This document shows positions 5,301 to 50,952 of a stretch of 64,000 nucleotides of DNA, in pieces. Position 1 is the first letter of the stretch. Every line of letters begins with the position of its first letter. The notes beneath the pieces were generated by a model, which saw nothing but the letters and a program-made list of their open reading frames with translations, was not told where the DNA came from and ran no database searches. The translations under genes and the position numbers were made by a program. The DNA is from a virus: the IMG/VR virus record IMGVR_UViG_3300046477_000491, positions 1 to 64,000 of that record. The stretch is one strand, 5' to 3'.

Positions 5301-6671
5301 GGTGATGGTGTTGGCCGCGAGCCTGTCGCCCGTGATCGAGCCCGCCAGGATCTGGGTAGCCGTCAGCGTCCCGGCGGTGATCTTCGAGGCGTCCAGCGAT
5401 CCGGTCGCGATGCGCGCGGCGTTGAGTGTGCCAACGTTGATCTTGCCCGCGTCGAGGTCGGAGATCTTGGCGTTGTTGATGGCCGCGTCGGCGATCTGCG
5501 CGTTGCCGATGGCGCCGTTGATGATCTTCGCCGAGCCGATCGTGGCGTCCGCGAGCTGGGTGCCGGTCACCGCGTTGTTGGCGATGTTCGTGGTGCCGAC
5601 GGCCAGGGCCGCCAGCTTGCCTGCCTCGACAGCCCCGTTGGCGATGTTCGCAGCCAGGACGGCGTTCGCCGCCAGCTTCGTGTTGTCGATGGCGCCGACC
5701 GCGATCTTCGCCGCCGACAGCGAGCCGTCGAGGATGTCCTGCGCGACGGCCTGCTTGGGGGTGTCCGAGTTCGAGCCGGACGGGGCCGATGCGATGCCGA
5801 CCTTGGAGTAGGCGACCAGCCGGTAGAAGTAGGCGCTGGCGTAGTTCTGGATGGAGTCGTACAGGAAGTCCGGGCCGGGCAGCGTGCCGATCACGACGGG
5901 GTTGGAGAATGCCGAGGTGGTGTCCCGCTGCACCTGCACGTGGGAGAAGATCGCAGGCATTGCCGTGCCGGTGTTGTCCTTGCCGTCCCATGTGACGCGC
6001 AGGCCGCCGAGCACGCCGAGGACCCCCGGCGCGGAGGGCACCGGAGGCGGGGTGGAAGCGGATGCCGTGGTGAGGTTGGCGCTCGCCCACAGGGAGGTGT
6101 TGTTGCTGGTGTCGAAGGCCGCGACCCTCACGTAGAGGGCCACGCCGGTATTAAGCCCGTCGAGGAGGACCAGGTCCTCCGTGGTGACGAAGCCGCCGCT
6201 CCAGTTGCTGTTGTCGTAGGAGGTCTGGAGCAGGTAGTGGGACAGGTCGGTGAGTGCAGTGCCGTCCTGGTTCTCGGTCGGCGGGGTCCAGCTCGCCGTC
6301 ACGCGGGCCCGGGTGGCGCCCTCGTTGGTGACGTACTGCACCGTGGTGAGGGTGAGCGCGGTCGGCTCCTTGGGCGGCAGGGCGTCGAGGGAGCCTCCGC
6401 CCCCGTCGCCGAGCTGGTCGACCTGGTCCTGGACGTCCTTGATCCCCAGCGGGGAGTAGACCGGCTTGGTGATGTCCCCGCCGGAGAACTGGACCCACAG
6501 CGTCTGGCCAACCGGCGGGATGGTGTTGGTCGGGGAAGAGGGGGCGGCCCAGGCGCTTTCGGCGTTTCCGAGTACCTGCGGAATGAGCAGCGTGACACGT
6601 GCTTCGTTCAGCGGGTCCTGGTTATTGGCAACGCTCGCCCGGTACATTCCCAGCACCGGATCAGCCGACAT
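2367..6671 (-). CDS. Baseplate spike (gp5/gpV OB-fold) fused to FN3 domains, 10-residue repeats and a tail-fibre/carbohydrate-binding C-terminus
   Basis: N-terminal 'GMYRASVANNQDP..RV.L.IP...WA.P...P.VG..LWVQF.GGD...PVY', FN3-like segments and ITANQIAANT-type repeats; 1434 aa. Confidence 0.85.
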   Translation of the reverse strand: MSADPVLGMYRASVANNQDPLNEARVTLLIPQVLGNAESAWAAPSSPTNTIPPVGQTLWVQFSGGDITKPVYSPLGIKDVQDQVDQLGDGGGGSLDALPPKEPTALTLTTVQYVTNEGATRARVTASWTPPTENQDGTALTDLSHYLLQTSYDNSNWSGGFVTTEDLVLLDGLNTGVALYVRVAAFDTSNNTSLWASANLTTASASTPPPVPSAPGVLGVLGGLRVTWDGKDNTGTAMPAIFSHVQVQRDTTSAFSNPVVIGTLPGPDFLYDSIQNYASAYFYRLVAYSKVGIASAPSGSNSDTPKQAVAQDILDGSLSAAKIAVGAIDNTKLAANAVLAANIANGAVEAGKLAALAVGTTNIANNAVTGTQLADATIGSAKIINGAIGNAQIADAAINNAKISDLDAGKINVGTLNAARIATGSLDASKITAGTLTATQILAGSITGDRLAANTITANQIAANTITANQIAAGTITAQSGVIASIDASKITVGKITATQIDATNLVVTGGNVSGTVASATSATTATSATSASSSTTVTGSIGAGVSVPAGQLSNGTIPTTTTISGGSIKTGTIDASLVSVTNLDANSIKAGTMTVDKFSAGLQGLVGQKFYDFGQNASKWLNAAGAGGTLTSVSKTDAASGGYVMRCAGYVQGAYRPDLLIPFDPNVTYRVTCRVRQVSDNSTPGVNQGFYAGVTGIASDGVTLVNTSGSNAVSSQHYVAAKGVPLTTGGAWVTYTGYIKGVSATPTGGNTANNPTAPATLHQNVKYISPCLYLNYNGGSGAAEMDMFTIEVVETGQVNSANINLGNVNASHLSLGSVTGNMVTNPGFEDASRVGWTLTQSDNTLATTVSKIEIAQGGYPARSGQGKATLGVNNTGTATATSDPFPVVAGETYMFRYWYYGIGHLHVTFETSTDKVTWTDQMAGVNDVTYNAAAYTEDIFEMTAPTGALWGRVTFQQLNPGSYGLSTSSFSYICVDDVLVMREGYGATDISAAGIRLFGPDGTLGTELTTSNAYATFAGGAASIDPNGVGTFKSLFTPQRPAGASSDDPTGQIWYQGQELGSLLWNMPWGMVTYERGWTQKPTSSTYYMSGTGNTDASFGLIELSFTAVEGRMYRIRARSQFDFTGGGSGGTPSELENAIQASGTTTTLNGCTILTPNGASPTVNDTMLGRNFGVSYDGVGSDFTVDVEAILVCSTDPGGLYGATTALAPGTHRVLWVGRIHAGAATGWGMRNYSPGQSSDFYVEDVGPAVHEGGVYNTGGQVVTATQTYTKTYNAVWSRRFGSAGYTDGSMYQGYYSSTWGTQKSMVYFGTQPYTDMGSTAKVSKVEVYLYANHWYYNGGGTAHIGVFTGTNEPTGFSGVGGVNDTISSWPVGAGKWVTLPSSWNSSWNASTPYRGITLGGDLGSSTDKTYYGIFNGVGDSHPPQLRVTYTK
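5240..5320. repeat. Imperfect 30-bp tandem repeats encoding ITANQIAA(N/G)T units
   Basis: CCGCGATCTGGTTGGC recurs at a 30-bp period within the fibre gene. Confidence 0.75.
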
Positions 6672-7812
6672 TGATGTCCTCCAGAAGACTCGATTCCCAG
6701 AACTGCTTGTTCCTCAGCACAGCCGGGACGGTGTCGAACTTGAAACGCTTGTTCGCATCGCTTCGGAATGTTACCGCGTAGGGCTGGTCCCTTTCCGCAT
6801 CCACGGTCGTGGTGAACATCAGGCCCGTGTTGCTCTTGTCGCGGTTGATGACGTGCTTGGTGCCCGTCACCATCCACCGGCCCTTGTTGTCCGACGAAAT
6901 GGAACTGCCGGAGATCCCGATGAGTGTTCCCGGGGCGACTTTCGCCGTGCCATATATCTCGGCCTGCATGGTGATCCAGCCACGGGAAGCGAGAGTGCGT
7001 GCTTCCATAAGCGCCTGCGCGTCGGCGTAGTTGTCGACGGCTCGGGCAGTGGATATGGAATTCAGGAACGTTCCGATTCCGGTGTCGGAAGCGGAGGACG
7101 CCTTGATGACCTTTCCGGTCTTCGCATCCAGGCCGGAAATCACCGAGGTGCTGGCCGCGCCATTGCTGCGCGGAATCATCGTTCCGGTGAGAATGGAAAG
7201 GCTCTGGAGGGTGTCGTAAAGTCCCGGCGTCTGGTTCTTGGAGAACACCGGGATGTCCTGGACCTTCTGCCCGAGCAGGAGAATGCGCGGGTCGAGGAAG
7301 TACAGGGTCGAGCCCTCCACCCAGAAGCGGTAGCCGGTCTCGGACGCGAGGTCGTTGACCAGCTTGAAGTCGCTCTCTCCGGTCTGGGCCCAGTAGGTCA
7401 GGCGCCGGGCGGACGGGGAGATGACGGTGCGCAGGCCGTTCTCCCGGCCCACCTTCCGCACGATCGCGGTCGGGGACACGTTCTTCCACGACCGGGTGCG
7501 CTGGGTGTTCATCGGCAGGGTGGTCCCGATGCAGATGTAGCGCATGGTGACGTTGCGACTGCCGGAGGAGGCCAGCGCGCTGGAGTGGTGCACGTAGCCG
7601 TACCAGCGCACGATGTCGTTCGGGGAGCGTCCGTAGTCGAGCACGACCGGTGTCAGTTCGCCGTACGGGCTCGCGGCGGTGGGCGGCGTGGTCACGTCGA
7701 TGATGGCCATCGAGTGCACGCCGTAGCCCTCGCGGATTTCCACCCGCGAGATGAGGCTGCTGACCTTGTCGGTGCCCATCGACAGACGGGTGACCGGTGC
7801 TTGTTCAGACAC
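6661..7812 (-). CDS. Baseplate hub protein (VgrG/gp27/GPD-like)
   Basis: 'QTGESDFKLVNDLASETGYRFWVEGSTLYF' late-control-D type motif; position before the spike. Confidence 0.85.
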   Translation of the reverse strand: MSEQAPVTRLSMGTDKVSSLISRVEIREGYGVHSMAIIDVTTPPTAASPYGELTPVVLDYGRSPNDIVRWYGYVHHSSALASSGSRNVTMRYICIGTTLPMNTQRTRSWKNVSPTAIVRKVGRENGLRTVISPSARRLTYWAQTGESDFKLVNDLASETGYRFWVEGSTLYFLDPRILLLGQKVQDIPVFSKNQTPGLYDTLQSLSILTGTMIPRSNGAASTSVISGLDAKTGKVIKASSASDTGIGTFLNSISTARAVDNYADAQALMEARTLASRGWITMQAEIYGTAKVAPGTLIGISGSSISSDNKGRWMVTGTKHVINRDKSNTGLMFTTTVDAERDQPYAVTFRSDANKRFKFDTVPAVLRNKQFWESSLLEDINVG

Positions 7813-8077
7813 TGGGGATCCTGATGATCTGGCCGGGCGTGAGTTCGTCCCACGTCATGACCTCGGGGTTGGCGTCGGCGATGTGCCACCACATCCGTGC
7901 GTCGCCGTAGTACTGGGTGGCGAGCAGGTCGACGCGGTCGGAGGAGGTCCACTGGTGGTAGGTGAACTGGAAGGACCATTCGCGCTGCTGGCCCGGTACG
8001 ACGGTGAGGTTGGTGCCACGTCCGGAGGAGACCAGCGCGAGGGTGGAGCCCGCGTAGCGGGAGTTCGAGGAGATCAC
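7805..8077 (-). CDS. LysM/tail-X-like baseplate protein
   Basis: GTG start overlaps the upstream stop (GTGA); 'DRVDLLATQYYGDARMWWHIADANP...PGQIIRIP' motif. Confidence 0.85.
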   Translation of the reverse strand: MISSNSRYAGSTLALVSSGRGTNLTVVPGQQREWSFQFTYHQWTSSDRVDLLATQYYGDARMWWHIADANPEVMTWDELTPGQIIRIPSV

Positions 8078-8856
8078 CGGCCTGCCTTTCCGCTGGAGCC
8101 CAACTGCTCCGACGCCGACAGCGGGTCGCCCCAGTTCGCCAGGCGCGGGCCGATGATCGGCGCGTACTTGTTGCCGCCCTGCGGGGAGGGCAGGAGCGTC
8201 ACGCCCACGACGACCACGCAGCGCTGGGGGATCATCTGCTGAGTCCAGTGGGTGTACCGGACCTCCAGCGACGAGATGGTCCCGTAGTAGGACAGCGTCG
8301 AGCCGATGACGACGAACACCGGGGTGTAGATCATCGGGCCGGACGGGCCGGTGGAGAACGAGCCCTTCTTGAAGTTGTCGATGGCGCCCTGGACGTCGGC
8401 CTTGTTGTCGCCGGTCGCGCTCATCGGGGAGGCGATGCCGGTCATCCGGTACAGGGACAGGACGTCGTAGGCGACACCGAACTCGGGCACCCACGTGAGG
8501 GCGTCCCCGTAGAGTTTCGAGGAGTCCCACAGTTCGTAGGTGCGGTCGAATTGCAGCGCGAAGGACAGCGTCTGCTGGAGGGGCAGGATGAACTGCCCCG
8601 CAGTGACGTCGTTCGGCAACTGTGAGTTCGGGTCGGCGAGGACCCCCGTGTCGATGCCGTGGTTGAGGTCGATCTCGCCCGGGTTGTACAGGAAGTTGCA
8701 GCGGTAGCGCACACCGTTGATCGGCTTCTCCATGATGATGAAGCCGCGCGTCAACTTCTTGTTGTTGTCGAAACTGTGCCCGTCGTTCTGGAGGAACGGA
8801 ATGGCAGAGATCCGAGGGTCGAAAGGACCGTTGTCCACGATCTTGCTGGCGGCCAT
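8074..8856 (-). CDS. Tail tube initiator / CIS-tube-like baseplate protein
   Basis: 'FLYNPGEI', 'LSFALQFDRT' and 'GTISSLEVRYTHW...PQRC.V.V' pattern; lies between tape measure and LysM genes. Confidence 0.7.
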   Translation of the reverse strand: MAASKIVDNGPFDPRISAIPFLQNDGHSFDNNKKLTRGFIIMEKPINGVRYRCNFLYNPGEIDLNHGIDTGVLADPNSQLPNDVTAGQFILPLQQTLSFALQFDRTYELWDSSKLYGDALTWVPEFGVAYDVLSLYRMTGIASPMSATGDNKADVQGAIDNFKKGSFSTGPSGPMIYTPVFVVIGSTLSYYGTISSLEVRYTHWTQQMIPQRCVVVVGVTLLPSPQGGNKYAPIIGPRLANWGDPLSASEQLGSSGKAGR

Positions 8857-8886
8857 TACACAGCCACCCAGGTATTAAGCCGCATG

Positions 8887-11800
8887 TCAGTTCCCTGCCG
8901 CGATGAGATTGATTCGGTTGTCCTCGGCGAGCGCCGTCATGAACTTGTTCGCTGCGTCCCGCGCCGAGGTCTGGTCCATGGCACCGGACACCTGCACCGT
9001 GATGGCGCCCGCGTGGAAGTTCAGGGTGGCCTTACCACCCGAGGTATTAAGTCCGCCGAGCCCGCCAGCCAGTGGGGTATTGCTCGACAGCGCCTTTCGG
9101 ATTGCGTCGGCCTGGTGAGCCGGGATAATCATTTCGCCCTTGTGGACGCGAGCCGTCTGGTCGACGTCGATATTCGCCGAGCCGACCGCGTATCCCTTGT
9201 AGGATCCACCGTTCGCCATCGACTTGATACCGGGAACATTCGCCAGGGATCCGTACCGGGAATCCGCGTAGCGGACGCCCGCGATGATGTTGTCGACCGG
9301 GTTCCAGATGTTCTTGTGACCGGCCAGCGAGTACGCCTTGAACGTCGAGTCGATGGTCTGCATGATGCCCTTGGACGGGTGGCCCGCCTTGGCGTTGGAG
9401 TCCCAGTTGTTCTGCGCGTGCGGATTACCGCCGGACTCGTGCATGGCCATCGTGTTGACGTACTTCTCGTTCGACGACGTGTCCTGGTGCAGGATCCCGA
9501 GCGCGGACTTGATCCACCCCTTGAGGTTGCCGGTCGGCATCGAGCCGGGCACGGACCCGTTGTCGGTGCTCTTGCTGCTGCTGCCGCCCTGCCCTGCGCC
9601 CACGCCCGAGCCGACGTTGGCCGCGCCAACCGAGGAGATACCGGCCGCGATGGCGTCGACCTCCTCGACCGAGCCGTACGAGCCGACGTCACCGCCGAAG
9701 CCCATGGAGGACAGGCGGTTGGAGTCAGACCCGGCGGTGTCGGTACCGTCGTCGGCGAGGTCGCCGAGGTTGCCGACCGCACCGAGGATGCGCACCGCGT
9801 TGGTGAACTCGCCGGACTGGTAGGCGCGGATACGAACCGAGGACCCGGTGTGCGGGGCCTCGATGATCTTCCCGTTGCCGATACACATCACGACGTGGTG
9901 CGCGGGGTTGCCGTTGAACAGCAGGTCGCCCGCCCGCTCCTGGCCGAGCTTGACCGACTTACCGGCCTTCTGCTGCTGCGCGGCCGTACGGGGCAGGGAG
10001 ACGCCGATCTGCTTGAACGAGAACTGGATCAGGCCCGAGCAGTCGAAGCCCTTCGGAGAGGCACCGCCCCAGACGTACTTCACGCCCAGGTACTTCATGG
10101 CGACCCTGATGACCGAAGCGGCCGTCTTGCCCGCACCGTTCGTGCCCGTGGCCACCGCGCCGCTCTTCCCCTTGCCGCCGGTCGCGGACGCCGCGCTGCT
10201 GCCGCTGCCCCCGTCACCACCCCAGAGGCTGGACACCAGACCGTAGCCACCACCGATGGCACCACCGATGACGGTTCCCTCGGGACCGAACAGCGTTCCG
10301 ATGGCAGCGCCATACGCTGCGTCGCCGAGCGTGGCCGACGCAACGTTGATGGCCTTCTTGCCCTTTTTGTTCTTGACGTGCTTGGCCGCGTAGTCACCTG
10401 CGGCGTGGATACCCCACCCGGCCAGACCGAGACCACCCGCCTTGGCCAGCGGGGAGCGCAGCAGGGCACCGGCACCGGCCATCATGCCGCCGTCGGCAGC
10501 GGCTGCACCGGCACCGCCCAGGAGGCTGCCTGCACCTTCGGTACCTCCGAGCATGCGTCCGGCCATACCGAGGCCGCGCATCATGCCGTAGTTGCCCATG
10601 GCGGAACCGACAGCGGATCCGACCATGGAACCCATGCCACCGGCATAACCGATCGCGCTGTCCAGATGGGTGTTCTTCAGGAAGTTCTGGATCGCGGTGC
10701 TGAACTCGTTCAGGTACTTCGTCGCGGTCTGGAGGCCGTCGGTGTAGGAGTCGTTGGTGTTGACGGTCTGGTTGCGCAGCGTCCCGGCCCGGTCGGATAG
10801 GGACTGCGCGTTCGTCTTGCCGATGCCCCACGAGTTCATCTTGGCGATGGCCGACTTGTCTCCGTTACCGACCTTGTTCATCGTGGACGCGTACGACTGC
10901 GCCGAGACGCCATGCATCTGCGCGGTGAGCAGTCCCAGCAGCGCGCTGCGGACCTGCTGGAGCGTGGAGGCGTCCATGGTCGCCGACAGCGACTGCATCA
11001 TGGCCGAACCCGGGCTCAGCGTCTCGTCGAGCTGCTCCTTGGTCTTGACGTTCTTCAGCGACGGCCAGCGCTGGAGCACCTGCTGGGCGATCTGCTGGGG
11101 CGTCTGCCGCTGCCCGCCCTTGATCGTCTGAATGCCGATGGCCTGGTTGGCGTAGTAGGACTTGGCCGTCCACGCGCTGGTCATGCCCTGGACGCGCTGC
11201 GCCTCGGAGACTCCGGGCTGGAGGTAGCCGGACGACTTGGCGTAGTTCCAGGCGGTGTTGTAGTTCGCACCGCCCGGGGAGCCCACGGAGGATCCCACGA
11301 GGCGCATCTGGGCCTGGGCGATGTCCTGGGTGCTCTGCGCGGTGAAGTTGTTCTTGTACGCCTGGTCGCGCAGGGTGTGCCAGTTGGAGCCCGACAGTTG
11401 GGCTGCCTGGTAGGAGGTGGTCTGCATGACGACCTGGTCGTCCATCTGCTTGGTCGACCAGGCGTAGAAGTCCTTGAGACCACCCTTGAACGTGTAAGGG
11501 CTCTTGCGCGCACCACTGCCGGAGCCGCTGCCCGAACCGCCGCTGCCGGAGCCACCCTGGCCGCCGTTGTTGGCCGCTCCGCCACCCTGTCCGGTCTGGC
11601 CGGAGAACGTGGCACCGCCACCGTTGGATGAGGTCGTCTGGCGCTGCTGCTGGCCGCCAGCTCGGGGAGCCGTGGAGGGGGCGCTGGCACCGCCGTTGGG
11701 TCGGCCGTGGCCGTAGTTACTGGTGTTGTTCCAGACGTCGTTGGCGAGCATGCCGAAGCCCCGGGCGCCTGATTGCGACCCGGAGCCACCGCTGTGCCAG

Positions 11801-11970: not shown

Positions 11971-12140
11971 TGTCCGCCTCAGCCGTTCGCCTATTGCGCT
12001 GCGCCGTAAACCACTTCACCCAGTGCAGGCGCTCCCGCACGGTCAACCGGCGAATTTCGCTGAGGCTCCAAGCCGGGGATAGCTCGACTAGTTGCTCGTA
12101 TTCGAAGTACGTGTCGAAGTAGTTACAGGCCCTGAAACAG
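11963..12140 (-). CDS. Start-less second tail-chaperone frame (…NYFDTYFEYEQLVELSPAWSLSEIRRLTVRERLHWVKWF…), probably reached by frameshift
   Basis: Open +1 frame overlapping the end of the chaperone gene, with no start codon after its last in-frame stop. The W..SEI..L...ER..W pattern resembles gpGT/gpE'-type extensions. Confidence 0.7.
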
Positions 12141-12989
12141 ATCCCCCGCCGAGATGAAGAGGGGGACCTCCTTTCCGCACGAATCGTGCAGGAACTTCAC
12201 ACCATTGTATTGCGGGCCGGGCTGCTTCTTTTCAATCGTGTCGAGGATCGTCTGGCGGTCCGCGATGCCGAGAGACCGGGCGAACTCCGGATTACCAGAA
12301 ACAGCGTTCTCAGTACCGTCCGCCTCGACCACGGAAATGAGAACCCGGGAGAGCAGGAGGGTGTTCTGCTCGGAGTCGCTGAGGCGGTCCGCGACGGCCA
12401 GGAGGGCTTCCTGGTCACTGCCGACAGGCAGCCGGACGAACGCCTTGCGGTTCTTGCGCAGGGCCACCTCGAAGATGCGGGCGGCAGGGTCCTCCAGGCG
12501 CCGGATGGGGATCTCGTCGAGGGTCACGGACAGGCGGAACTCCTCGCCGCAGAACGGGCAGGAGTAGCGGTCCCAGACGATCTCGTCGCCGTACGTGGCA
12601 CGGCGGATCTCCAGCAGGAGCATGTCGCGGTCGCCGAGCAGGAGGTTGGACAGCAGGGTGGTGCTGGCCTGCTCGCCGCCCACGGAGACGGTGCCCGCCG
12701 AGAGCAGGGTGGCGATGTACTTGCCGAGGCCGCCGGAGCGCGCCTTGGTCATGGCTTCCTCATCGGCGCCGGTCAGTTCGCGGACGTCGGCGTCGTAGCG
12801 GACGGATGCGTAGTCGCCGCCCAGAACATAGCCTCCCGGCAGGCTGAAATTACCGCCTGCCGGGAGGGTGATCTCGGGCTTGGCGACCTGTCCCCCGTTG
12901 TCATTCAGAATCGCCGCGATGGCGGCATTCGATGCGCTCGGGTTGGCGAGGGGGTTGGTGTACCCCTCGGTATTAAGGTCGGTAGCCAC
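12123..12989 (-). CDS. Tail assembly chaperone / T4 gp26-like protein
   Basis: Between tube and tape measure; 'VRELTGADEE', 'LLLGDRDMLLLEIRRATYG', CPFC and a terminal 'CG' metal-site pattern. Confidence 0.75.
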   Translation of the reverse strand: MATDLNTEGYTNPLANPSASNAAIAAILNDNGGQVAKPEITLPAGGNFSLPGGYVLGGDYASVRYDADVRELTGADEEAMTKARSGGLGKYIATLLSAGTVSVGGEQASTTLLSNLLLGDRDMLLLEIRRATYGDEIVWDRYSCPFCGEEFRLSVTLDEIPIRRLEDPAARIFEVALRKNRKAFVRLPVGSDQEALLAVADRLSDSEQNTLLLSRVLISVVEADGTENAVSGNPEFARSLGIADRQTILDTIEKKQPGPQYNGVKFLHDSCGKEVPLFISAGDLFQGL

Positions 12990-13591: not shown

Positions 13592-15136
13592 TCAGGAAGT
13601 GGCCGTCGAGTCGGTCGCGGAGGACCCACCCGAGTACTGGCCGATTTCGATGACGATGAATTCGGCCGGTGTCTGGACCGCCACACCGACGGAGATGTTC
13701 ACGACACCGTTGGCCACGGAGGCGGCGGTGTTGTTCGAGGAGTCGCAGGTGACGAAGTACGCCTGCTCCGGCGTGGTACCGGCCAGCACACCCGTCTGCA
13801 TCAGGGTGAGCAGGTACTGCGTGATGACCGCGTTGATCTGGTCCCACAGGATCGAGTCGTTGGGCTCGAAGACGGCGAAGCGGGTCGCGTCGAGGATGCC
13901 CTTCTTGATCAGCATCAGCGACCGGCGGATGGAGACGTACCGGTCCGGCATGCCCGTCGACAGCGTCCGGGCGCCGTAGATGACAAAGCCCGTGCCCGGC
14001 AGCGACTTGATCACGTTGACGCCCGCGACGTTCAGAGCGTCCTGGTCGTCGTTGGAGAACCGGAACTCCGTGTCCAGCACGCCCTTGAGGACGGTGTCGA
14101 TACCGGCCGGAGGCTTCTGCACACCGCGCGAGGCGTCGGTACGCGCGTACTGGCCCAGCACCGCGCCGCCAGGCGGCAGCAGACGGGCCGAACCGGACGC
14201 GGCGGTCGCCGGGTCGTTGACGATCAGCCACGGCCCGTAGACGGCCGCGTACGAGGACGCGCTCAGCGCCGAGCCACCCGTGGACATGTTCTGGAGCGAG
14301 AGCGCGTAGGAGTGAGCGTTGTCGGCCGAGGTCGACTTCACGCCGTCCACGACGACGAACACGCTGCCCTGGTCCTCGGCCCACGCAATGACCGGGTTCA
14401 GGACGGTCGCGTCGGTGACGCCCGGCAGGTTGAGGACGAGGTTCGCATCGACGACCTCCAGCCGCTGCGCAGCGGACGCCAGGTCCACCGCAGCGACACC
14501 GTCCGAACCGCCGGTCAGGGCGACACCGGACTGTATGGCCGGGGCGTGGGTCGGCACCCACGCGGTATTAAGCAGGCTCTGGACCTGGACGAAGGACGAG
14601 CCGGTGACCGGGGAGTTGATCAGCGCCTGGGCGTTGCGGGAGTCGGCCGGGTCCAGGGAGACATCGGTGAACCGCTCCTTGAGGAAGGCCGACGTCTCAC
14701 CGCCCACGTACACGAACAGGTCGAAGCGGCCACCGCCGGACGAGGCCGCCGTGACGTCCACGTACACCTGGTTGCCCCAGGAGCCCGGAGAGATCGCGGT
14801 GATCTTCAGGGTCGGCTCGGGAGTCACCTCAGTGTCGTCGAGGGAGACATGGGCTGCGACCGCGTCGGAGGCAGCAGCGCGCACGACGTAGGCCGCGTTG
14901 CCGCCGTTGTTGAAGTACTGGTAGACGCTGAACGGCAGGTACTCGCTCGTGTCGCCGAACCCGCCGAAGGTGGCCACATACTGCGACCAGGACGACACCA
15001 GCGTGGGGGCCAGCGGGCCGCCCTGCTTGTTCGTGCCGACGAAGGCCGCGACGGACTCGCCCGGCGTGTTTACGGTCTGGCTGAGCGGGGTCAACGTCTC
15101 CGAAATGTAGACGCCAGGCCGCTTGTAGACAGTCAT
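13592..15136 (-). CDS. Contractile tail sheath protein
   Basis: 'YKRPGVYISE', 'AAVYGPW', 'RTDASRGVQKPPAG', 'YGARTL...YVSIRR', 'FEPND..LW', 'PAEFIVI'. Confidence 0.95.
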   Translation of the reverse strand: MTVYKRPGVYISETLTPLSQTVNTPGESVAAFVGTNKQGGPLAPTLVSSWSQYVATFGGFGDTSEYLPFSVYQYFNNGGNAAYVVRAAASDAVAAHVSLDDTEVTPEPTLKITAISPGSWGNQVYVDVTAASSGGGRFDLFVYVGGETSAFLKERFTDVSLDPADSRNAQALINSPVTGSSFVQVQSLLNTAWVPTHAPAIQSGVALTGGSDGVAAVDLASAAQRLEVVDANLVLNLPGVTDATVLNPVIAWAEDQGSVFVVVDGVKSTSADNAHSYALSLQNMSTGGSALSASSYAAVYGPWLIVNDPATAASGSARLLPPGGAVLGQYARTDASRGVQKPPAGIDTVLKGVLDTEFRFSNDDQDALNVAGVNVIKSLPGTGFVIYGARTLSTGMPDRYVSIRRSLMLIKKGILDATRFAVFEPNDSILWDQINAVITQYLLTLMQTGVLAGTTPEQAYFVTCDSSNNTAASVANGVVNISVGVAVQTPAEFIVIEIGQYSGGSSATDSTATS

Positions 15137-41103: not shown

Positions 41104-41110
41104 ACGGGGG

Positions 41111-41183: not shown

Positions 41184-41188
41184 TTGCG

Positions 41189-41987: not shown

Positions 41988-41999
41988 GATGCACTCCGC

Positions 42000-42145: not shown

Positions 42146-42154
42146 TGGACAAAG

Positions 42155-42227
42155 TGGCCCCCCTTGGAATCGCACCAAGATCTCCCGCTTTTCAGGCGGG
42201 CGCATTAACTGTCTCTGCCAAAGGGCC
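42155..42227 (-). tRNA. tRNA-Phe(GAA), atypical
   Basis: CCCGC-CT-GAA-AA-GCGGG anticodon arm and intact stems, but the T-loop is TGCGATT and the D-loop lacks GG. Confidence 0.7.
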
Positions 42228-42233
42228 GTGAAG

Positions 42234-42307
42234 TCTGGACGGCAGGATTCGAACCTGCGACCCCCTGCATCCAAAGCAGGCGCGCTACCGGGCTGCGCTA
42301 CGTCCAG
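42234..42307 (-). tRNA. tRNA-Pro(TGG)
   Basis: C1-G72/A73, CCTGC-TT-TGG-AT-GCAGG, GGTTCGAATCC. Confidence 0.92.
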
Positions 42308-42717: not shown

Positions 42718-43092
42718 CTACTTGTGCGCGGCCTCGAACTCGCGGATGAGGTCCGTGGGGATCCGGCCGGTGTGGGCGATCTCCCGGCCCTGCTCCTTCA
42801 GCCACTGGCGCACGTCCGCAGCCGTGAAGGTCTGGCCGCCCCGACCCTTGATGGCCTTCAGCACCTGCGTGCCGACGCGCTTCTCGGTGTTGTGGGCGAT
42901 GGAGGTGAAGGGCTCCAGGGCACCGACCATGAGCTGCTGATGGTCCCGGCATAGATCCATGAAGTATCTCGTCGTCCCGACCGTGATGGCCGTGGCCTCG
43001 TTACCGGGGACGTCCTGGCCGCAGGTTTCGGTCTTGCGGCCGTGCTTCACCTTGAAATCGCAGAACTTGTCAACACTGACGCGCTCACCCAT
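42718..43092 (-). CDS. lsr2: Lsr2-like nucleoid-associated protein
   Basis: 'Y.MDL...H' dimerisation region and 'VRQWLKEQG..IAHTGRIP..L...FEAA' DNA-binding domain. Confidence 0.8.
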   Translation of the reverse strand: MGERVSVDKFCDFKVKHGRKTETCGQDVPGNEATAITVGTTRYFMDLCRDHQQLMVGALEPFTSIAHNTEKRVGTQVLKAIKGRGGQTFTAADVRQWLKEQGREIAHTGRIPTDLIREFEAAHK

Positions 43093-44574: not shown

Positions 44575-45444
44575 CTAGAAGGCCCCGGGGGCCACTTGGA
44601 GGGTCCGCAGGCCGAGAAGGCGCCACATCTCGACCACCTGGTCACGGTCGTCGAGGACCATCCACACGTTGTAGCGGCCCAGGATCTCCTGCCGGTAGAT
44701 CTCCTCCTTCACGATCGAGTCCTTGCGCATGTCGTACTCGGCGCGCATCAGCAGCGGCGACAGCGAGGTCCACTCCCCCACGTGCTGCACCAGCCAGGCC
44801 CGGGTCCGCTTGTAGGCCCGAGCGTCGCGGCCGGACACGAAGATGATCTCGGCGCCCGCGTCCCGCAGCGTGTTCACGAGGTCGATGACGTCCTGGTGCG
44901 CCGTGTCCTCGTCCACCCGGTCCCAGTCGAAGGGACTGCGGTCGGCCATCTTGGCCAGCGTGCCGTCCAGGTCCACCAGCACGGCGTGCGGGCGGTCAGG
45001 GAGCAACGCAGGGGGGTCGGCAGGCTTGGGGGCCAGGTACTTCTCGTACATGTCCTTGATGACCTTCTCGCCGACGCTCTTCTCCCGCTTCAGGTCGCGG
45101 CGGACGCAGGTATTAAGTGCCACGTCGGTGAAGTCCTTGACGAAGAACCGGGCTCCCCGGCTTTCCGCCAGCCGCTCCAGGCGCTCCTCGTGGTACGGGT
45201 TGAGGTTGGTGTCGGCGACGATCACGCTGACGCCCTGGAGCAGGAACATCTCCACGAGCGCGTCGCGGGCCTTGACGACCTGCCGCTCGTTCTTGCCGTG
45301 CCAGCGGTCGGCGTGCAGCATCGCCCGCAGGTCGTCCTTGCACACGATCACGACGGAGCCGGGGATGGCCTTGAGGACCTGCTCGCGGGCCCACGTCGTC
45401 TTGCCGGAGCCCGGCAGGCCCTTGGTCATGGTCAGCGTCGTCAC
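44575..45444 (-). CDS. Polynucleotide 5'-kinase / 3'-phosphatase (T4 PseT-like)
   Basis: GLPGSGKTT P-loop, DTNL, HAD motifs DLDGTLA, SGR and DDRDQVV. Confidence 0.93.
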   Translation of the reverse strand: MTTLTMTKGLPGSGKTTWAREQVLKAIPGSVVIVCKDDLRAMLHADRWHGKNERQVVKARDALVEMFLLQGVSVIVADTNLNPYHEERLERLAESRGARFFVKDFTDVALNTCVRRDLKREKSVGEKVIKDMYEKYLAPKPADPPALLPDRPHAVLVDLDGTLAKMADRSPFDWDRVDEDTAHQDVIDLVNTLRDAGAEIIFVSGRDARAYKRTRAWLVQHVGEWTSLSPLLMRAEYDMRKDSIVKEEIYRQEILGRYNVWMVLDDRDQVVEMWRLLGLRTLQVAPGAF

Positions 45445-45485
45445 GGGCTTCTCCTTCGTCTTCTTCGGTCCGCAGCACAGGCATT

Positions 45486-45791
45486 TCACGGGCATCGGCA
45501 GCACCCGTCGCAGCCGTGCAGGCCCTCGTAGGGGTTGTAGTCCTCGCCCTGCATCATTCGCTTGTAGGCGAGGTCGTCCGGGTCGGGGTGTCCGACGCCG
45601 TGGGAGCACATCCGCTCCATCAGGGCGCGGTCCATGCGGAAGTGCTGGGGCCAGTCGGCCATGTGGTGGTCGGAGGGGTTGTGTACGCAGCAGTGGCGGC
45701 CGATGCAGTCCTTGCGGGGGTGGGCGAGGAGTCGTTCCCCGCCCACCAGTTCCGCCGCCTCGAACCAGCCGCCGAGGTCGTCGGGCTCCAT
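45486..45791 (-). CDS. Cys/His-rich metal-binding protein
   Basis: 'C...HCCVHNPSDHHM...ER.C.HG.GHPDPD...HGCDGCC', between the ligase and PNK genes. Confidence 0.7.
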   Translation of the reverse strand: MEPDDLGGWFEAAELVGGERLLAHPRKDCIGRHCCVHNPSDHHMADWPQHFRMDRALMERMCSHGVGHPDPDDLAYKRMMQGEDYNPYEGLHGCDGCCRCP

Positions 45792-46897
45792 CAGGCCGCG
45801 TCCTCCGAGAGCGTCTGGAACGGCTTCTCGTACGTCGGCCGGACCCGCTTCCAGACGTCGGCCGTGATGTCCTTGCCGCCGTAGATACGGAACAGCAGAC
45901 CCGGGTACGGCGTCTCCTGGGCGAGCAGCGCGAACTCCTTGCGGCGCTTCTGTGCGTCCGTCTCCGGCCGCCGCAGGCGCTTGATGATCCAGGCGTAGTC
46001 GTCCATGATCTGGGCCTTCTCGCGGGCGAAGTCGCCCTCCAGGCGGTACACCTGCTGGTGGACCCAGGTGTAGAACTCGTCCGGGACGCGGTCGATCCAG
46101 GAGTCGATGCCCTGCCCGTTGGCCAGCGCGTCCCACACGGAGAGGGTGGAGACGTTCGTCAGGATGCGGTGCAGGCGGACGTACTCGTCGTACTTGAACT
46201 TCACCCGGGTGTCGCTCCAGGGGAAGCGGACGACGAAGCCCTCCAGGTTGGACTCCTGCACGTTGCGCATGTAGTCCAGGACGTCGGGCATCGTCTTGAA
46301 GCCGACCGGCTCGTTGACCGGGCCCGGCCAGTCGTAGGTGCCGAAGGGGAGCGTCTTGCCGGTCGCGGTGTCGATGACGGCGAGGAGGACCAGTTCGTCC
46401 AGGCCCTGGTAGTCCACCACGATGCGGTTGGCCGCGTAGACGATCTCGAAGAGATACGTCAGGCCGAGGATGGGCTCGAACTTCGGGTACCGGCTCTGAA
46501 CGGCTTCCGTGGCGTGCAGCGCCTGGGGGCTGGTGAAGGAGCCCCGCGTGGCGATGCGGAACTCCCCGGTATTAAGCGTGTAGCCGACGCCCAGAGAGCC
46601 GTCCCACTTCACGTACCCCTCGACCGGCTGCGTCAGGAGCGTGGAGTGCAGTTCGGGGACCTGGTCCCAGTTGAAGAACTTCTCGAACGGGCGGGAGACG
46701 ACCTCGTTGGTGACACTGTCGACGATCAGGCCGCGCGTCTTCTTCGTGACGTCGTTCCACATGCCCTCGTACTGGGCCTTGTTCGTGTAGTTGAGGATGG
46801 CCAGCGGAGCGTCGGGGTGGTTCTGCCTGCGGACGTAGCCCTTTTCGAGCATGTCCTTGAGCAGGCTCTGGGACATGATGCTCATGAGGTTGGTCAT
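45791..46897 (-). CDS. RNA ligase (T4 Rnl1-like)
   Basis: 'RGLI...RPFEKFFN', motif I KWDGSL, 'TRGSF', 'FEI', 'EGFVV', 'K.KY.EY'. Confidence 0.9.
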   Translation of the reverse strand: MTNLMSIMSQSLLKDMLEKGYVRRQNHPDAPLAILNYTNKAQYEGMWNDVTKKTRGLIVDSVTNEVVSRPFEKFFNWDQVPELHSTLLTQPVEGYVKWDGSLGVGYTLNTGEFRIATRGSFTSPQALHATEAVQSRYPKFEPILGLTYLFEIVYAANRIVVDYQGLDELVLLAVIDTATGKTLPFGTYDWPGPVNEPVGFKTMPDVLDYMRNVQESNLEGFVVRFPWSDTRVKFKYDEYVRLHRILTNVSTLSVWDALANGQGIDSWIDRVPDEFYTWVHQQVYRLEGDFAREKAQIMDDYAWIIKRLRRPETDAQKRRKEFALLAQETPYPGLLFRIYGGKDITADVWKRVRPTYEKPFQTLSEDAA

Positions 46898-46919
46898 GGA
46901 TCCTCCGAGGTGTGGTGGG

Positions 46920-47147
46920 TCAGAGACGCTGGTCGAGTGCCGTGACCACGCGCTTGGCGAAGGTCTCGTAGAACTCGTCGGGGAGGTGGTCGATGGCGAA
47001 CCACTTCCGGGCCTCAAGGGCGACGATCTCTACGGCCTCGGCGCGCTTCTTGCCCTGCCGCTCCAGCCAGTCCCTCGCGGCGCTGACGTTGGGGATGGCC
47101 AGGTGTCCGAGGTTCAGGGTGGGGCGGTCGTCCTTCGTGGCGGTCAT
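46920..47147 (-). CDS. Hypothetical protein
   Basis: 75 aa ORF in the operon. Confidence 0.55.
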   Translation of the reverse strand: MTATKDDRPTLNLGHLAIPNVSAARDWLERQGKKRAEAVEIVALEARKWFAIDHLPDEFYETFAKRVVTALDQRL

Positions 47148-47149
47148 GT

Positions 47150-47563
47150 TCAGCCCTTCTTCGCGGCCTTCTTGTTCTTGCGCTTGTTCTTGGTCTTCTT
47201 CGCGGCCCGGCGGTCACGCTTGTCGAGGTCGGTCTCGACGTCGCTCAGGGCCTCGTCCAGCTTTTCGATGAAGAGGTAGATGGCGCCCTTGAGGCGGTCG
47301 GCCTTCGCGCGGGCGTTCTCCAGGTCCTTGCGGAGCTGGGCGCGGTCTTCCTCGGTGCCGGTCTGGCCGTAGACGCCGAAGTCGAGGGTCACGCTGCGGG
47401 AGCAGTCCTGGATCTGGAGGGTGGCGCCGAAGTCGAGGTAGTCGTCGCTGCTGTCACCGTCGTTGATCTCCGCGAGCACCGCACCGAGGCCATGGTGTCC
47501 CTGGTTGTTCAGGAACTCGCGGATGTAGAGGCGGCGCTGCTCGTCGGTGGCGGTGGTGCTCAT
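47150..47563 (-). CDS. Hypothetical protein with basic tail
   Basis: GAGGAG RBS; TTGAGA-17-TAGGTT promoter upstream. Confidence 0.65.
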   Translation of the reverse strand: MSTTATDEQRRLYIREFLNNQGHHGLGAVLAEINDGDSSDDYLDFGATLQIQDCSRSVTLDFGVYGQTGTEEDRAQLRKDLENARAKADRLKGAIYLFIEKLDEALSDVETDLDKRDRRAAKKTKNKRKNKKAAKKG

Positions 47564-47765
47564 GCGGTGCTCCTCGGTTCTGCGGTTCTGTGGTGCCGGG
47601 GTGACCCCGACATCGAGAAACCTATAACGAAGAAGACGTAATCTCAAGCCCGTAATCGTGAATCTGTTCAACGTAACCCGTATGACGTGGGTCACACCTC
47701 AAGGGGGTTGCGCACACGTGCAAAAGACCCCCGCCGTAGCAGGGGTCTTCGCAGGTCAGGACAGG

Positions 47766-47876
47766 TCAGTTACCGGACGCCACCAGCAGCGCGTGCCCGA
47801 CGTAGACGGCCGCAGCCGCGTCCAGCAGGAGCGCCACGATCCACACGGCCTCCGGAACATCACGGAACCACTTCAT
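47766..47876 (-). CDS. 36-aa single-TM protein (MKWFRDVPEAVWIVALLLDAAAAVYVGHALLVASGN)
   Basis: Abuts the upstream stop, has an RBS and is followed by a terminator hairpin. Confidence 0.5.
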   Translation of the reverse strand: MKWFRDVPEAVWIVALLLDAAAAVYVGHALLVASGN

Positions 47877-48527
47877 TCAGATCTTCCTCACGTAGTTGAT
47901 GAAGTCCTGGAGCCGGTCCGTACGCGGCTGCGCCGGAAGGATGCCGACCCGGTCGTTGAAGACGTCGAACGCCTTCCAGAACTCGGCCTCGATCTGCTCG
48001 CCCGACATCTCGTCGAACGCCCAGTAGAAGTCCGGGTCCGGCACACGGACGGTCAGCGTCCCGAACTCCAGCAGTTGCTGGCCCTGCCGCAGCAGCCGGA
48101 AGCAGTGCCGGGCGTGCTTGGCCACACGCTTCTGCCTGGCCTCGTTGGCCAGCTCCTGCTTGATCCGCTTGATCTGCCCCATGGCGTACCCGCCGTACGC
48201 GGAGCGCACGTAGCCCTCGGACAGGAAGTCCTCGCGGATGTCGACCAGCCACTCCCCCTCCCAGGACTGCTCCTCGTACTCCTCCAGGTACATCAGGTCC
48301 ATGATCGTCGGGTTGCACTTCAGCGCGAGGTTCACGTACTTGCCGACCTCGTGCAGGGTGACGTCCGGAGCCGTGGTCACCAGCGAGTCCTGATGCTGGG
48401 AACCGATACGGAAGAACTCCGGAGTGGGACGGATGAAGATGCCGAGCCGGTCGGTGTCCGAGCCGGGCCGGGCGAGGCCGAAGGCAGTGCTGCCCACGAC
48501 CCCGCTCAGCAGGATGTTGGTCCCCAT
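47877..48527 (-). CDS. Pol-beta superfamily nucleotidyltransferase (YcgL-like)
   Basis: 'GSTAFGLA.PGSDTD..G' GS-DxD motif, 'NPT', 'KHARH..RLL'. Confidence 0.85.
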   Translation of the reverse strand: MGTNILLSGVVGSTAFGLARPGSDTDRLGIFIRPTPEFFRIGSQHQDSLVTTAPDVTLHEVGKYVNLALKCNPTIMDLMYLEEYEEQSWEGEWLVDIREDFLSEGYVRSAYGGYAMGQIKRIKQELANEARQKRVAKHARHCFRLLRQGQQLLEFGTLTVRVPDPDFYWAFDEMSGEQIEAEFWKAFDVFNDRVGILPAQPRTDRLQDFINYVRKI

Positions 48528-48982
48528 CAGAACCAGTAGTCCTCGGACGGGTCGTTGTCGCGGCCGTCCTCCTCGTAGCGCTCGGCCGCCTCCTCGTACG
48601 TCGCCAGGGCCTCCTCGACAGACCGGCCCCACGTCATACCGGCGTCCTGCTCGGACTGCACGATCTCCAGCAGCGCCCGCGTCTCGTTGTCGGCCTTGAC
48701 GAACTCCGTGTCGATCAGCGTCCCCGCCGAGGCGTACACGTTCTTGTCCTGGGCGAACATGTCGTCGTACGTGACGCCCTTATAGGCCAGCACCTGGCCG
48801 ACGATGCACGACGGCGCCTTCGTGGCCGGGTCGAAGTACGCACACAGCGCTGCATCGTCGATGGTGAGCATCCTGTACACGTGGTCGGCGCCCCGCTCCT
48901 CGACCGCGCGGGCCAGCAGCGTCTTCGCCTCGTCCAAGGTGATCTCGACGGCCTCGTGGGAGGCCGGGGTATTAAGCGTCAT
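48527..48982 (-). CDS. Hypothetical protein
   Basis: 'CAY......PSCIVG..L', 'Q..QD.G.TWG' actinophage-type pattern. Confidence 0.7.
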   Translation of the reverse strand: MTLNTPASHEAVEITLDEAKTLLARAVEERGADHVYRMLTIDDAALCAYFDPATKAPSCIVGQVLAYKGVTYDDMFAQDKNVYASAGTLIDTEFVKADNETRALLEIVQSEQDAGMTWGRSVEEALATYEEAAERYEEDGRDNDPSEDYWF

Positions 48983-49405: not shown

Positions 49406-50092
49406 TCACACAGAAGCGGGGTCGAACAGGTTGCGTCCCTCGCCGTCCTTCGAGACAGGGGTGAGCTTGCCCCGGTCGACCCACGTGCTGATCGTGCTGG
49501 GCTTCACCTCCAGCAGCTCGGCCAACTGCCTGGCCGTGACCAGGGTGACCTCACTGCTGTCTCGCCGCTGTCTCAGCACCCCGGCCAGCCGGTGGAACGT
49601 CAGCGCGGCCAGGTGCGTACCCAGCGCGATGCAGATCGTCGGAGCGGCCGAGGCCAGGATCACGTGCCCCCACGTCGTCTTCGCGGACTGCCCGGTGACG
49701 TGCGCGTACGCAGAGCCGTGGGCGACGTTGAGAACGAGTGAGACAGCGGTGAGACCGACCACCGTGCCGATCGCCCACCGGTATCCCGGGGAGCCGACCA
49801 GCGCCAGCGAGGCGACCACACCCAGACCGTCCAGCCCGTCGATGACCAGGGGGTAGTACTCCCTGACCTCGTGCAGGCCGATGCCGTCTGCGGTGTCTCG
49901 AAGGGGAACCCAGCTCACCCGCATACCGACCAGCGCCACGAACGCCAGCGCCACCAGGATCAGAGTGAACCCGATGACCAGACCGGTCGCATGCAGGCCG
50001 TTGAACGGCTGAGACGGGGGCGAGACAGGGTCTGTCTCAGTCTTGCTCGCGCGACTCTCGCGCCAGCTCTGGATAGGCTTGGTCAGTCCCAT
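49406..50092 (-). CDS. DUF2637/SpdA-like membrane protein with C-terminal MerR-type HTH
   Basis: Four hydrophobic helices with 'SW..LRD.A...YPLVIDG', then 'TARQLAELLEVKPSTISTWV.RGKL'. Confidence 0.7.
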   Translation of the reverse strand: MGLTKPIQSWRESRASKTETDPVSPPSQPFNGLHATGLVIGFTLILVALAFVALVGMRVSWVPLRDTADGIGLHEVREYYPLVIDGLDGLGVVASLALVGSPGYRWAIGTVVGLTAVSLVLNVAHGSAYAHVTGQSAKTTWGHVILASAAPTICIALGTHLAALTFHRLAGVLRQRRDSSEVTLVTARQLAELLEVKPSTISTWVDRGKLTPVSKDGEGRNLFDPASV

Positions 50093-50263
50093 GGAGAGTG
50101 CACACCTCTCGTTGGTGGGACAGGCGTCCGGTGGACTCATCCTCCGCCGGGCGCCCGAATACCCATCTAGGTATTAAGCCGGACCACCGTCTTCTCCTCC
50201 CTGTCTCAGGCCGGGACAGCTCCCGGTAGCGGTTGAGTATGCGTCGCTCGAAGTCGTTCAGGC

Positions 50264-50626
50264 TCAGCGGCCGACGACCTCCGCCCGTATCGCGTTGCCG
50301 GACGACGGGTGGATCGCGACGCTGCTGCTGGCGTGGACCTCCAGGCGCCGGTCCTCCTCCAGGCGCACCAGGAAGTAGGACCAGAACTTCTCGCCCGGCG
50401 CCTTCCAGCGGAACTCGACGGTCGGGTTGCCGTGCAGGTGCCGACGGTTCGCGCTGTAGGGGTCGATGCGGACCGTGGCGTCCTCGGGCCCCTCGTTCAG
50501 CAGCTCGCGGGCCGTAGCCAGCTCCTGCTCCAGGCGCGCAATCTTCTCGTCCTTCGCGCGGACGCGGTCCTTGACCCACTTCGGCAGGCGCTCGAACCTC
50601 GGGTCCTCCGTCATCGGTGTGTTCAC
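50264..50626 (-). CDS. Hypothetical protein
   Basis: 'RLPKWV...I..LE' start; coupled to the upstream gene. Confidence 0.6.
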   Translation of the reverse strand: MNTPMTEDPRFERLPKWVKDRVRAKDEKIARLEQELATARELLNEGPEDATVRIDPYSANRRHLHGNPTVEFRWKAPGEKFWSYFLVRLEEDRRLEVHASSSVAIHPSSGNAIRAEVVGR

Positions 50627-50952
50627 CAGGTACCACCCTTCTTGGCCTTCTCCCAGGCCGACTTGGACACGCACACGTGCCCGGTCTTCTTGCCGTCGCG
50701 GAGGTCGAGGCGCCAGCACTCCGGGTCCGTCTGCGAGATGGGGATGTACATCGAGATCGTCGAGTAGCAGACCCTCGACGAGCCGGATCCCGAGCACTGC
50801 GTCGTGTAGATCGGCTGCATGTACGTGTAGGTGTCTTCCGGTACGTACCGCTTGCCGGTGATCGTGCCGTGGTCGAGATCCGACCCACAGCCGGTGAGGA
50901 CGAGCGCCCCCACGAGCGCGGCCGAAGCCGCGTAGGTATTAAGCCGCTTCAC
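50623..50952 (-). CDS. Putative lipoprotein
   Basis: Signal peptide with LTGC lipobox. Confidence 0.7.
   Translation of the reverse strand: MKRLNTYAASAALVGALVLTGCGSDLDHGTITGKRYVPEDTYTYMQPIYTTQCSGSGSSRVCYSTISMYIPISQTDPECWRLDLRDGKKTGHVCVSKSAWEKAKKGGTW

Follow-up and report, generated by a model that had tools for sequence, protein, structure and literature searches.

A lineage-switchable nine-nucleotide word with an adjacent hairpin in the genes of temperate Streptomyces phages, a candidate control signal on translated mRNA

The analysed DNA, hereafter the window, comprises positions 1 to 64,000 of a virus record of 76,753 bp (IMG/VR record IMGVR_UViG_3300046477_000491, here G000) from rhizosphere metagenomes. 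Its genes carry a nine-nucleotide word, CTTAATACC, which is written on the sense strand, is read there as the codons CTT-AAT-ACC (Leu-Asn-Thr) and is followed by a small hairpin; a sister lineage carries the same element with one central base exchanged throughout its genomes. The phage, which encodes a tyrosine integrase and a serine recombinase, is temperate, and a close relative (G011) is integrated as a prophage in Streptomyces sp. NPDC002088. Taken together, the comparisons point to a control signal of a kind not previously described, which may be read on translated messenger RNA (mRNA). Our favoured explanation, held tentatively and at somewhat less than an even chance, is that the element acts as a cis-signal on translated mRNA and is discriminated by a switchable phage factor.

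The word, its orientation and its one-base switch

The window contains 16 exact copies of CTTAATACC, of which 15 are minus-strand and one, at 28390, is plus-strand, against a mean of 0.06 and a maximum of 1 after dinucleotide shuffling. An earlier note on this DNA, made from the letters alone, had reported the same count and strands as far above chance, and its coordinates proved exact; its estimate by eye of about 68% GC gives way to a measured 65.4% for the record. Five further copies lie beyond the window (67947, 69988, 73007, 73606 and 74677), bringing the whole record, in which nearly all genes are on the minus strand, to 21 (20 minus, one plus). Under a third-order Markov model the word is the most enriched sense-strand 9-mer (20 copies vs 0.16 expected), only 4 one-mismatch variants occur in the whole record, and the flanks show a mild preference for G before and for T or G after the word. 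The variants CTTMATATC and CTTCATACT occur in 6, 15 and 12 copies, on the sense strand only and likewise with hairpins. C/T is tolerated at positions 8 and 9, and the invariant core is therefore the heptamer CTT-MAT-A. The 17-kb early region between 50943 and 67947 is free of copies, in agreement with the reported absence from the early-type region at 51–64 kb; complete relatives have a second copy-free stretch of about 16 kb, and site-free stretches measure 16–18 kb overall. Two further words are enriched on the sense strand, (G)AAGCCGTAA(T) with 7–11 copies and GCTTGACAA with 7 (for example at 28350–28372 and 50960–50975); these are probably parts of promoters.

Related IMG/VR records fall into two types. 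Those of type A carry CTTAATACC (21 copies in G000, 27 in G001, 8 in G005, 26 in G012 and 16 in G013), and those of type B carry CTTCATACC, whose central codon is CAT (29 in G002, 35 in G003, 10 in G004, which is a 43% fragment, and 36 in the prophage G011). In every complete genome a single copy stands on the opposite strand, and the rest of the NPDC002088 lysogen genome holds only about 24 copies in 10.6 Mb. Among six genomes compared, 57 orthologous site groups were recognized, of which more than 25 are common to both types and show the lineage's own base at each site, with Asn exchanged for His in the proteins. G001 and G011 each retain a single relic of the opposite type, lost sites persist as one-mismatch relics, and type-specific sites fall where the protein natively has Leu-Asn-Thr or Leu-His-Thr. 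The spelling of these tripeptides is reciprocal:

Leu-Asn-Thr: written as CTTAATACC in 60 of 64 cases in A genomes; in preferred codons in 11 of 13 cases in B genomes.
Leu-His-Thr: in preferred codons in 7 of 8 cases in A genomes; written as CTTCATAC(C/T/G) in 89 of 96 cases in B genomes.

No Leu(CTN)-Asn-Thr(ACN) spelling other than the rare one was found in the present genome, as the earlier note had remarked for the proteins that it read. Its proposal of selection on nucleotides rather than on protein is borne out by this reciprocal rare-codon spelling and by the genome-wide one-base switch. Moreover, enrichment over a Markov background, orientation in the rest of the genome and spelling in relatives, on which the note had staked its claim, all came out in its favour. 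The evidence points unambiguously to selection acting on nucleotides within a young clade and to a reader that would have changed its specificity.

The outgroups BRock (0 copies), the Terracoccus provirus G006 and G007 are without the word. Outgroup orthologues align across the sites without gaps and have unrelated codons there; mobile insertion was rejected for this reason, and the elements must have arisen in place. De novo scans for a word plus hairpin in about 90 capsid-centred distant loci returned no analogous element, only collagen-repeat words. A full-text literature search for the word found no relevant paper, and the BRock genome announcement, going by its abstract, makes no mention of such a motif.

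Several individual loci illustrate the history of the word. Tandem copies 21 nucleotides apart occur at G001:73973–74002, both being CTTAATACC, and in G011 (C18:136147–136176), where CTTAATACC is followed by CTTCATACC; the first of the latter pair is left over from the switch. In the A-type G001 the word stands at codon 3 of the recA-like gene itself (83139), whereas the B-type G002 and G003 (54273 and 40209) have it in a 10-codon upstream open reading frame (ORF) whose stop overlaps a TTG start of that gene. In the outgroup provirus G006 (L102), early promoters of the pattern TTGACA-N17-TCTGCGCATAAT occur six times between 69351 and 76798, always on the same strand.

All copies inside called genes lie on the gene's own strand, the gene calls being crude and based on third-position GC content (GC3). 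Two non-orthologous plus-strand copies exist, one of the 28390 type (G000, G001, G003) and one at G002:101832, shared with G011; they lie in different small plus-strand ORFs and carry their lineage's own base. Two independent flips together with plus-strand genes indicate that orientation follows the genes and not replication, and the earlier claim that it follows transcription holds for the whole record. These flips bear directly on a signal acting in replication, recombination or packaging of the DNA, for example a primase start or single-strand initiation (ssi) site, a site-specific nick, or a word of the Chi or KOPS kind. Such a signal would suit the concentration of nearly all copies on one strand, the resemblance of a word plus hairpin to single-strand initiation sites, and the DnaG-type primase and DnaB-like helicase of the phage. 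However, Chi and KOPS words orient by replication or DNA ends, whereas the present word orients by individual genes: there are no minus-strand copies in plus-strand genes, and sense orientation excludes packaging, Chi-like and replication readings unless the two independent flips are coincidence. Given also the 16–18 kb stretches without sites, and the constant frame and mini-ORFs described below, which it leaves unexplained, we regard a DNA-level signal as highly improbable.

The adjacent hairpin, the reading frame and the mini-ORFs

The word is directly followed by a hairpin, a feature that the earlier note had overlooked. The 26 nucleotides after the word in G000 fold with a mean minimum free energy (MFE) of -9.2 kcal/mol, compared with -4.9 at random sense-strand positions (p = 4e-7). 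The same downstream signal is present in G001, G002 and G003 (p = 2.5e-8, 1e-6 and 7e-12; MFE about -9 vs about -4.9), and the 26 nucleotides upstream of the word fold no differently from background. A simple stem-loop follows 89 of 111 copies (about 80%, vs 41% of controls) and starts 0–2 nucleotides from the word in 68 of these 89. The hairpins are GC-rich, with stems of 5–8 bp and loops of 3–5 nucleotides, 4 being commonest; their sequences are unrelated from site to site, and the loops are not conserved. At orthologous sites, third-codon-position substitution is lowest in the 5' arm (0.14) and the spacer (0.15), higher in the 3' arm (0.22) and the loop (0.25), and reaches 0.26–0.34 in the flanks. 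Judged by these rates, the hairpin is under purifying selection.

The reading frame is equally constant. Every in-gene copy in the present genome is read in frame 0 on the gene's strand, CTT-AAT-ACC, and the antisense reading GGT-ATT-AAG (Gly-Ile-Lys) is found nowhere within sense-strand genes, both as the earlier note had stated. Frame 0 of the A word could reflect tolerance, since TAA or TTA arises in its other frames. Codon usage would place only 20–30% of B-word copies in frame 0 and makes the antisense reading Gly-Met-Lys about 30 times likelier by chance, yet the B-word copies in ORFs are in frame 0, with one doubtful exception in G011. The interpretation of the constant frame as mere tolerance is therefore abandoned, the more so as any copy outside the long genes is housed in a mini-ORF that supplies a Shine-Dalgarno sequence and a start codon. 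These mini-ORFs have 6–26 codons, with a start codon 2–6 codons upstream of the word, and their stops overlap or abut the start of the next gene; examples are MVRLNT*, MRLNTWVAV*, MTRLNTCPRQGDHR*, MRLHTYGGPC* and MNNRLHTSAEAANASA*. An AGGAG or GGAGG Shine-Dalgarno sequence precedes at least three independent mini-ORFs, compared with 2.5% of random non-genic positions. About one-third of the independent sites are no more than 10 codons from a start codon.

The 16 copies in the window, each with its hairpin where one is present, are as follows:

6117–6155, minus: word at 6147–6155, codon 173 of a 1434-amino-acid tail protein gene; hairpin 6117–6146 (MFE -21.9).
8848–8885, minus: mini-ORF 8856–8885, ATG-CGG-CTT-AAT-ACC-TGG-GTG-GCT-GTG-TAA (MRLNTWVAV*), whose stop overlaps the ATG of gene 8074–8856; word at 8871–8879; hairpin 8848–8868.
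9024–9051, minus: word at 9043–9051, codon 974 of a 1027-amino-acid tape-measure-like gene; hairpin 9024–9040.
12948–12977, minus: word at 12969–12977, codon 5 of gene 12123–12989; hairpin 12948–12968.
14544–14572, minus: word at 14564–14572, codon 189 of gene 13592–15136; hairpin 14544–14563 (MFE -20.9).
17245–17253, minus: word as the last three codons of gene 17242–17661, followed by TGA; tight hairpin absent.
20354–20381, minus: word at 20373–20381, codon 3 of gene 19527–20387; hairpin 20354–20371.
28390–28416, plus, the sole plus-strand copy: word at 28390–28398, codon 7 of the 50-codon ORF 28372–28524, upstream of a serine recombinase gene; hairpin 28401–28416.
37798–37806, minus: word at codon 7 of the MazG-like gene 37321–37824; downstream structure weak.
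38546–38568, minus: word at 38560–38568, 7 codons before the stop of gene 38536–38865; hairpin 38546–38558.
39862–39886, minus: word at 39878–39886, codon 67 of the exonuclease-like gene 38843–40084; hairpin 39862–39876.
45109–45117, minus: word at codon 165 of the polynucleotide kinase-phosphatase gene 44575–45609; hairpin offset and weak.
46537–46576, minus: word at 46568–46576, within the RNA ligase gene 45791–47017; hairpin 46537–46566 (MFE -19.7).
48949–48976, minus: word at 48968–48976, codon 3 of gene 48527–48982; hairpin 48949–48966.
50167–50187, minus: mini-ORF GTG-GTC-CGG-CTT-AAT-ACC-TAG (MVRLNT*) after the Shine-Dalgarno sequence GGGAGGAG, upstream of the MerR-like gene 49406–50140; word at 50170–50178.
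50917–50943, minus: word at 50935–50943, codon 4 of gene 50623–50952; hairpin 50917–50932 (MFE -20.9).

Six copies thus stand at codons 3–7, two in mini-ORFs, two no more than 7 codons from a stop and six in gene interiors, so that the preference for gene ends described earlier is genuine, though partial. On the minus strand at 50140–50190, the tandem mini-ORFs MVRLNT* and MGIRAPGGG* precede the MerR/HTH_17-DUF2637 gene 49406–50140, an arrangement that looks like a translated leader region.

Much of this anatomy would also be expected of a ribosome-independent RNA element, in which a single-stranded 9-mer and a hairpin are bound or cut by a sequence-specific phage protein. Its role could be mRNA processing or stability, translational repression in the manner of T4 RegA or the MS2 coat protein, or nut-like antitermination. 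A linear word joined to a hairpin, sense orientation, the one-base lineage switch and the location of about one-third of sites near starts all agree with such an element. However, exclusive frame 0 and Shine-Dalgarno-led mini-ORFs would be left unexplained, the hairpin loops are not conserved, unlike those of boxB or the MS2 operator, and a cut at codons 3–7 would strip the start codon from the gene that contains the element. We consider a ribosome-independent element possible, with a chance well below even. RNA-library contigs of a 90–95% relative span the sites at 12969, 17245 and 20373; nothing firm on cleavage or expression follows from them.

Translation-coupled reading and its alternatives

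In the explanation that we favour, the signal would be a composite on the sense strand: in-frame CUU-AAU-AYY (CUU-CAU-AYY in the sister lineage), a spacer of 0–2 nucleotides, and a GC-rich hairpin of 5–8 bp with arbitrary sequence and a loop of 3–5 nucleotides, read on the mRNA during its translation. Both codons, CUU and NAU, are read by G:U wobble. Given the geometry of the ribosome, when CUU occupies the P site and the rare NAU codon the A site, the base of the hairpin would lie 10–12 nucleotides from the first P-site base. This is the mRNA entry of the ribosome, where unwinding must begin, and the element may accordingly serve as a pause or checkpoint cassette. Since the genomes are almost pure for one central base, the ribosome alone would not be the reader and a specific trans-factor would be needed, presumably a phage-encoded factor of switchable specificity that discriminates base 4. 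In this way the phage would probably control its non-early genes (those with structural, replication, nucleotide and RNA-repair functions) in concert, for timing in lytic growth or for silencing and immunity in the lysogen. A word that has to pass the ribosome as three codons would be expected to show frame locking, to come with mini-ORFs and to avoid untranslated DNA, none of which is expected of a duplex binder or a free RNA-binding protein. Of the mechanisms offered in the earlier note, a double-stranded roadblock and a translocase site consequently receive less weight, and a signal on translated mRNA is favoured.

Several observations weigh against this explanation. The stems fold equally well on both strands (-9.6 vs -9.5 kcal/mol), and compensatory pair changes are not in excess (9 double, 36 single with pairing kept, 129 broken); RNA-level structure is therefore not proven, and RNA and single-stranded DNA are not distinguished by these data. 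Frame 0 applies to all copies in called ORFs bar one in G011, which is out of frame with a crude and doubtful gene call and has a GTG two codons upstream in its own frame. Furthermore, frame 0 at most B-type sites could be a legacy of an A-type ancestor, in which the other frames hit TAA or TTA, and synonymous pre-sites are few (2 in frame 1 and 9 in frame 2, in three genomes). The frame argument consequently rests mainly on about ten B-specific gains and on the mini-ORFs. Lastly, a search of five phage records for possible reader families gave no match to RelE/ParE, Gp49, NusG (PF02357) or sigma-70 region 2.

The closest known logic is that of a stoperator-like repressor site. The stoperators of Cluster A mycobacteriophages (L5, Bxb1) are 13-bp duplex sites that are bound by the immunity repressor and are mostly not associated with promoters (PMC6550527). 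As with these, the present word is found in a temperate actinobacteriophage as tens of asymmetric, transcription-oriented and lineage-specific copies. An asymmetric duplex site of this kind, at which an immunity repressor blocks RNA polymerase in one direction and silences the prophage, with the A and C words as heteroimmune types, would fit the 21–36 sites per genome and their single orientation relative to transcription. In contrast to stoperators, however, the conserved word has 9 bp and not 13, and its copies avoid non-coding DNA, being forced into ORFs and mini-ORFs at an amino-acid cost. A fixed frame, a 3' hairpin and mini-ORFs would be needless for a duplex binder, and the repressor-like proteins do not covary with the word: the XRE-type and Zn-helix-turn-helix (Zn-HTH) proteins have no residue fixed by type, and the HTH regions of G012 and G011 are nearly identical. 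We therefore judge such a duplex site unlikely. A post-transcriptional counterpart of the stoperator is a conjecture that we put forward with considerable doubt: an early protein of switchable specificity (the candidate being the coiled-coil and zinc-module product of gene 63679–64641) would act on ribosomes held at CUU-NAU-AYY plus hairpin and thereby gate 20–45 non-early genes, the A and C words marking heteroimmune or differently timed types. If this were true, immunity or timing would be encoded at the level of translation and written in coding sequence.

Strict co-orientation, together with a short word and a small hairpin that folds equally well as DNA, would also suit an element of the non-template strand in the transcription bubble, which in the manner of ops and RfaH might load a phage elongation or antitermination factor repeatedly on long operons. 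The lambda nut site (boxA plus boxB) and ops share with the present element a short linear word and a small hairpin oriented with transcription. However, those sites occur once or twice per genome in untranslated leaders and are marked by a conserved boxB loop or by a NusG paralog as reader, none of which was found here. The sites of the present phages are in ORFs and not in leaders, and their frame lock would be unexplained; moreover, the five phage records gave no match to a NusG-like domain (PF02357), although a host or unrelated factor could take its place. An element of this type is quite improbable.

The element further resembles frameshift and pause cassettes, with CUU first and in frame, a rare codon next and a stem-loop near the ribosome entry. 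The prfB site CUU-UGA-C and the Ty1 site CUU-AGG-C are +1 frameshift sites with a shifty CUU. A programmed +1 frameshift cassette would combine a shifty P-site CUU, a hungry A-site codon and a 3' hairpin, and the invariant in-frame heptamer CUU-MAU-A followed by structure agrees with that design. Nevertheless, the open run in the +1 frame after the sites is like that at random positions (median 43–51 vs 33 codons), as is that in the -1 frame, and no alternative-frame product is evident. Some sites abut stops, 20–45 sites per genome are spread throughout essential genes, the +1 codon would be the very rare AUA, the spacer is short (2–4 nucleotides after the heptamer), and +1 re-pairing is only partly plausible. 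A lineage-wide base switch likewise sets the element apart from such cassettes, and we attach very little probability to frameshifting. Leader-peptide attenuators (hisL, trpL, erm) and the Streptomyces bldA/TTA system resemble the element in using rare codons as a regulatory device and in having short Shine-Dalgarno-led ORFs near RNA structure. An attenuator-type arrangement, with such an ORF and a coupled downstream gene, was seen at only 3–5 loci, those of the mini-ORFs named above; unlike in those systems, most copies lie in long genes, and the whole 9-mer is fixed instead of a single codon.

Candidate readers and the biology of the phage

The search for a reader covered proteins, transfer RNAs (tRNAs) and complementary RNAs. 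The Zn-HTH protein (25960–26223), suggested in the earlier note as a binder, had none of 80 positions fixed between A and B types; the XRE/DUF5753 repressor-like protein (36205–37071), whose HTH region is nearly identical in A-type G012 and B-type G011, had none of 280. This covariation result covers these two candidate proteins only. The early regions of G012 and G011 are only 72–88% identical, so that their comparison leaves the candidates un-narrowed. One early gene, P0001, is a lead:

63679–64000, minus: 3' part, within the window, of the early gene P0001 (320 amino acids), which extends to 64641 (L148:3679–4641); weak candidate factor.

P0001 is the only gene that is split deeply by motif type, with about 72% identity within and about 30% between types and 64 of 219 aligned positions fixed between them. 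Its confidently predicted structure (predicted local distance difference test, pLDDT, 89) combines a long helical hairpin with a CxxC...CxxC module; it has no Pfam family, and its fold matches generic coiled coils only. The family is widespread in Streptomyces phages and prophages, often mislabelled as cytochrome c, and has homologues in G015 and G016, phages of 156–160 kb without any word-plus-hairpin element. Given its generic fold matches, its lack of a Pfam family and these homologues, P0001 was rejected as an established reader. Several other genes show deep mosaic splits on other partitions, for which reason it is a lead and not a finding. Weaker candidates are a 52-amino-acid protein with 28% of 50 positions fixed and the gene 33362–33649 with 15% fixed.

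Among tRNAs, an unusual 86-nucleotide tRNA(GUG) of class II shape, its variable arm long and its discriminator base C, is encoded in three B-type genomes (G003:101737–101822, minus, L087; G002:9573–9658; G011) and in no A-type record, and the tRNA cluster in the fragmentary B-type G004 lacks it as well; as a reader it is suggestive at most. The window has its own tRNA cluster at 41109–42307 (minus), encoding Asn(GTT), Leu(CAA), Phe(GAA) and Pro(TGG), and the phage-encoded tRNA Asn(GTT) reads the central AAT codon of the phage's own word. Pairing with 16S ribosomal RNA was rejected, as that of the lysogen has no complement to either word (at best 7 of 9 Watson-Crick pairs, scattered). A trans-acting complementary RNA was also rejected, as the phage has no reverse-complement copy beyond the flipped site. 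An 8-of-9 complement match, GGTATTAAC, lies at 22901 directly after the stop of the portal gene and is not conserved in B genomes. Within 22840–22910 (minus), a hairpin, CCGTAATCCTC...GAGGATTACGG, comes after GGTATTAAC and includes the ribosome-binding site of the following gene in its pairing.

The capsid protein of the phage is 73% and its terminase 65% identical to those of Streptomyces phage BRock and its relatives. Genes in the window specify a tyrosine integrase, a serine recombinase, an XRE-type repressor-like protein, MazG, Lsr2 and four tRNAs. The phage protein at 42718–43092 (minus) has an Lsr2 DNA-binding domain (Pfam). An RNA repair module at 44575–48632 (minus) comprises a polynucleotide kinase-phosphatase, an Rnl1-like RNA ligase and an RlaP-like nucleotidyltransferase, and each of the first two genes contains a copy of the word. 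Complete relatives additionally encode PolA, a DnaG-type primase, a DnaB-like helicase, ribonucleotide reductase (RNR), RecA and ThyX. Neither a phage RNA polymerase nor, in five phage records, a sigma-70 region 2 or NusG domain came to light.

To our knowledge, no known phage control system works by the coding-embedded code proposed here. The explanation is directly testable because a cultured lysogen exists (Streptomyces sp. NPDC002088), and the element might offer Streptomyces engineering a compact, orthogonal and sequence-programmable expression switch. Should its reading indeed take place during translation, the element would constitute a genome-wide regulatory code within coding sequence, consisting of three fixed codons and a hairpin and switchable between lineages by a single base. 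Dozens of phage genes would then be coordinated without promoters or operators, at the cost of an Asn to His exchange at more than 25 positions.

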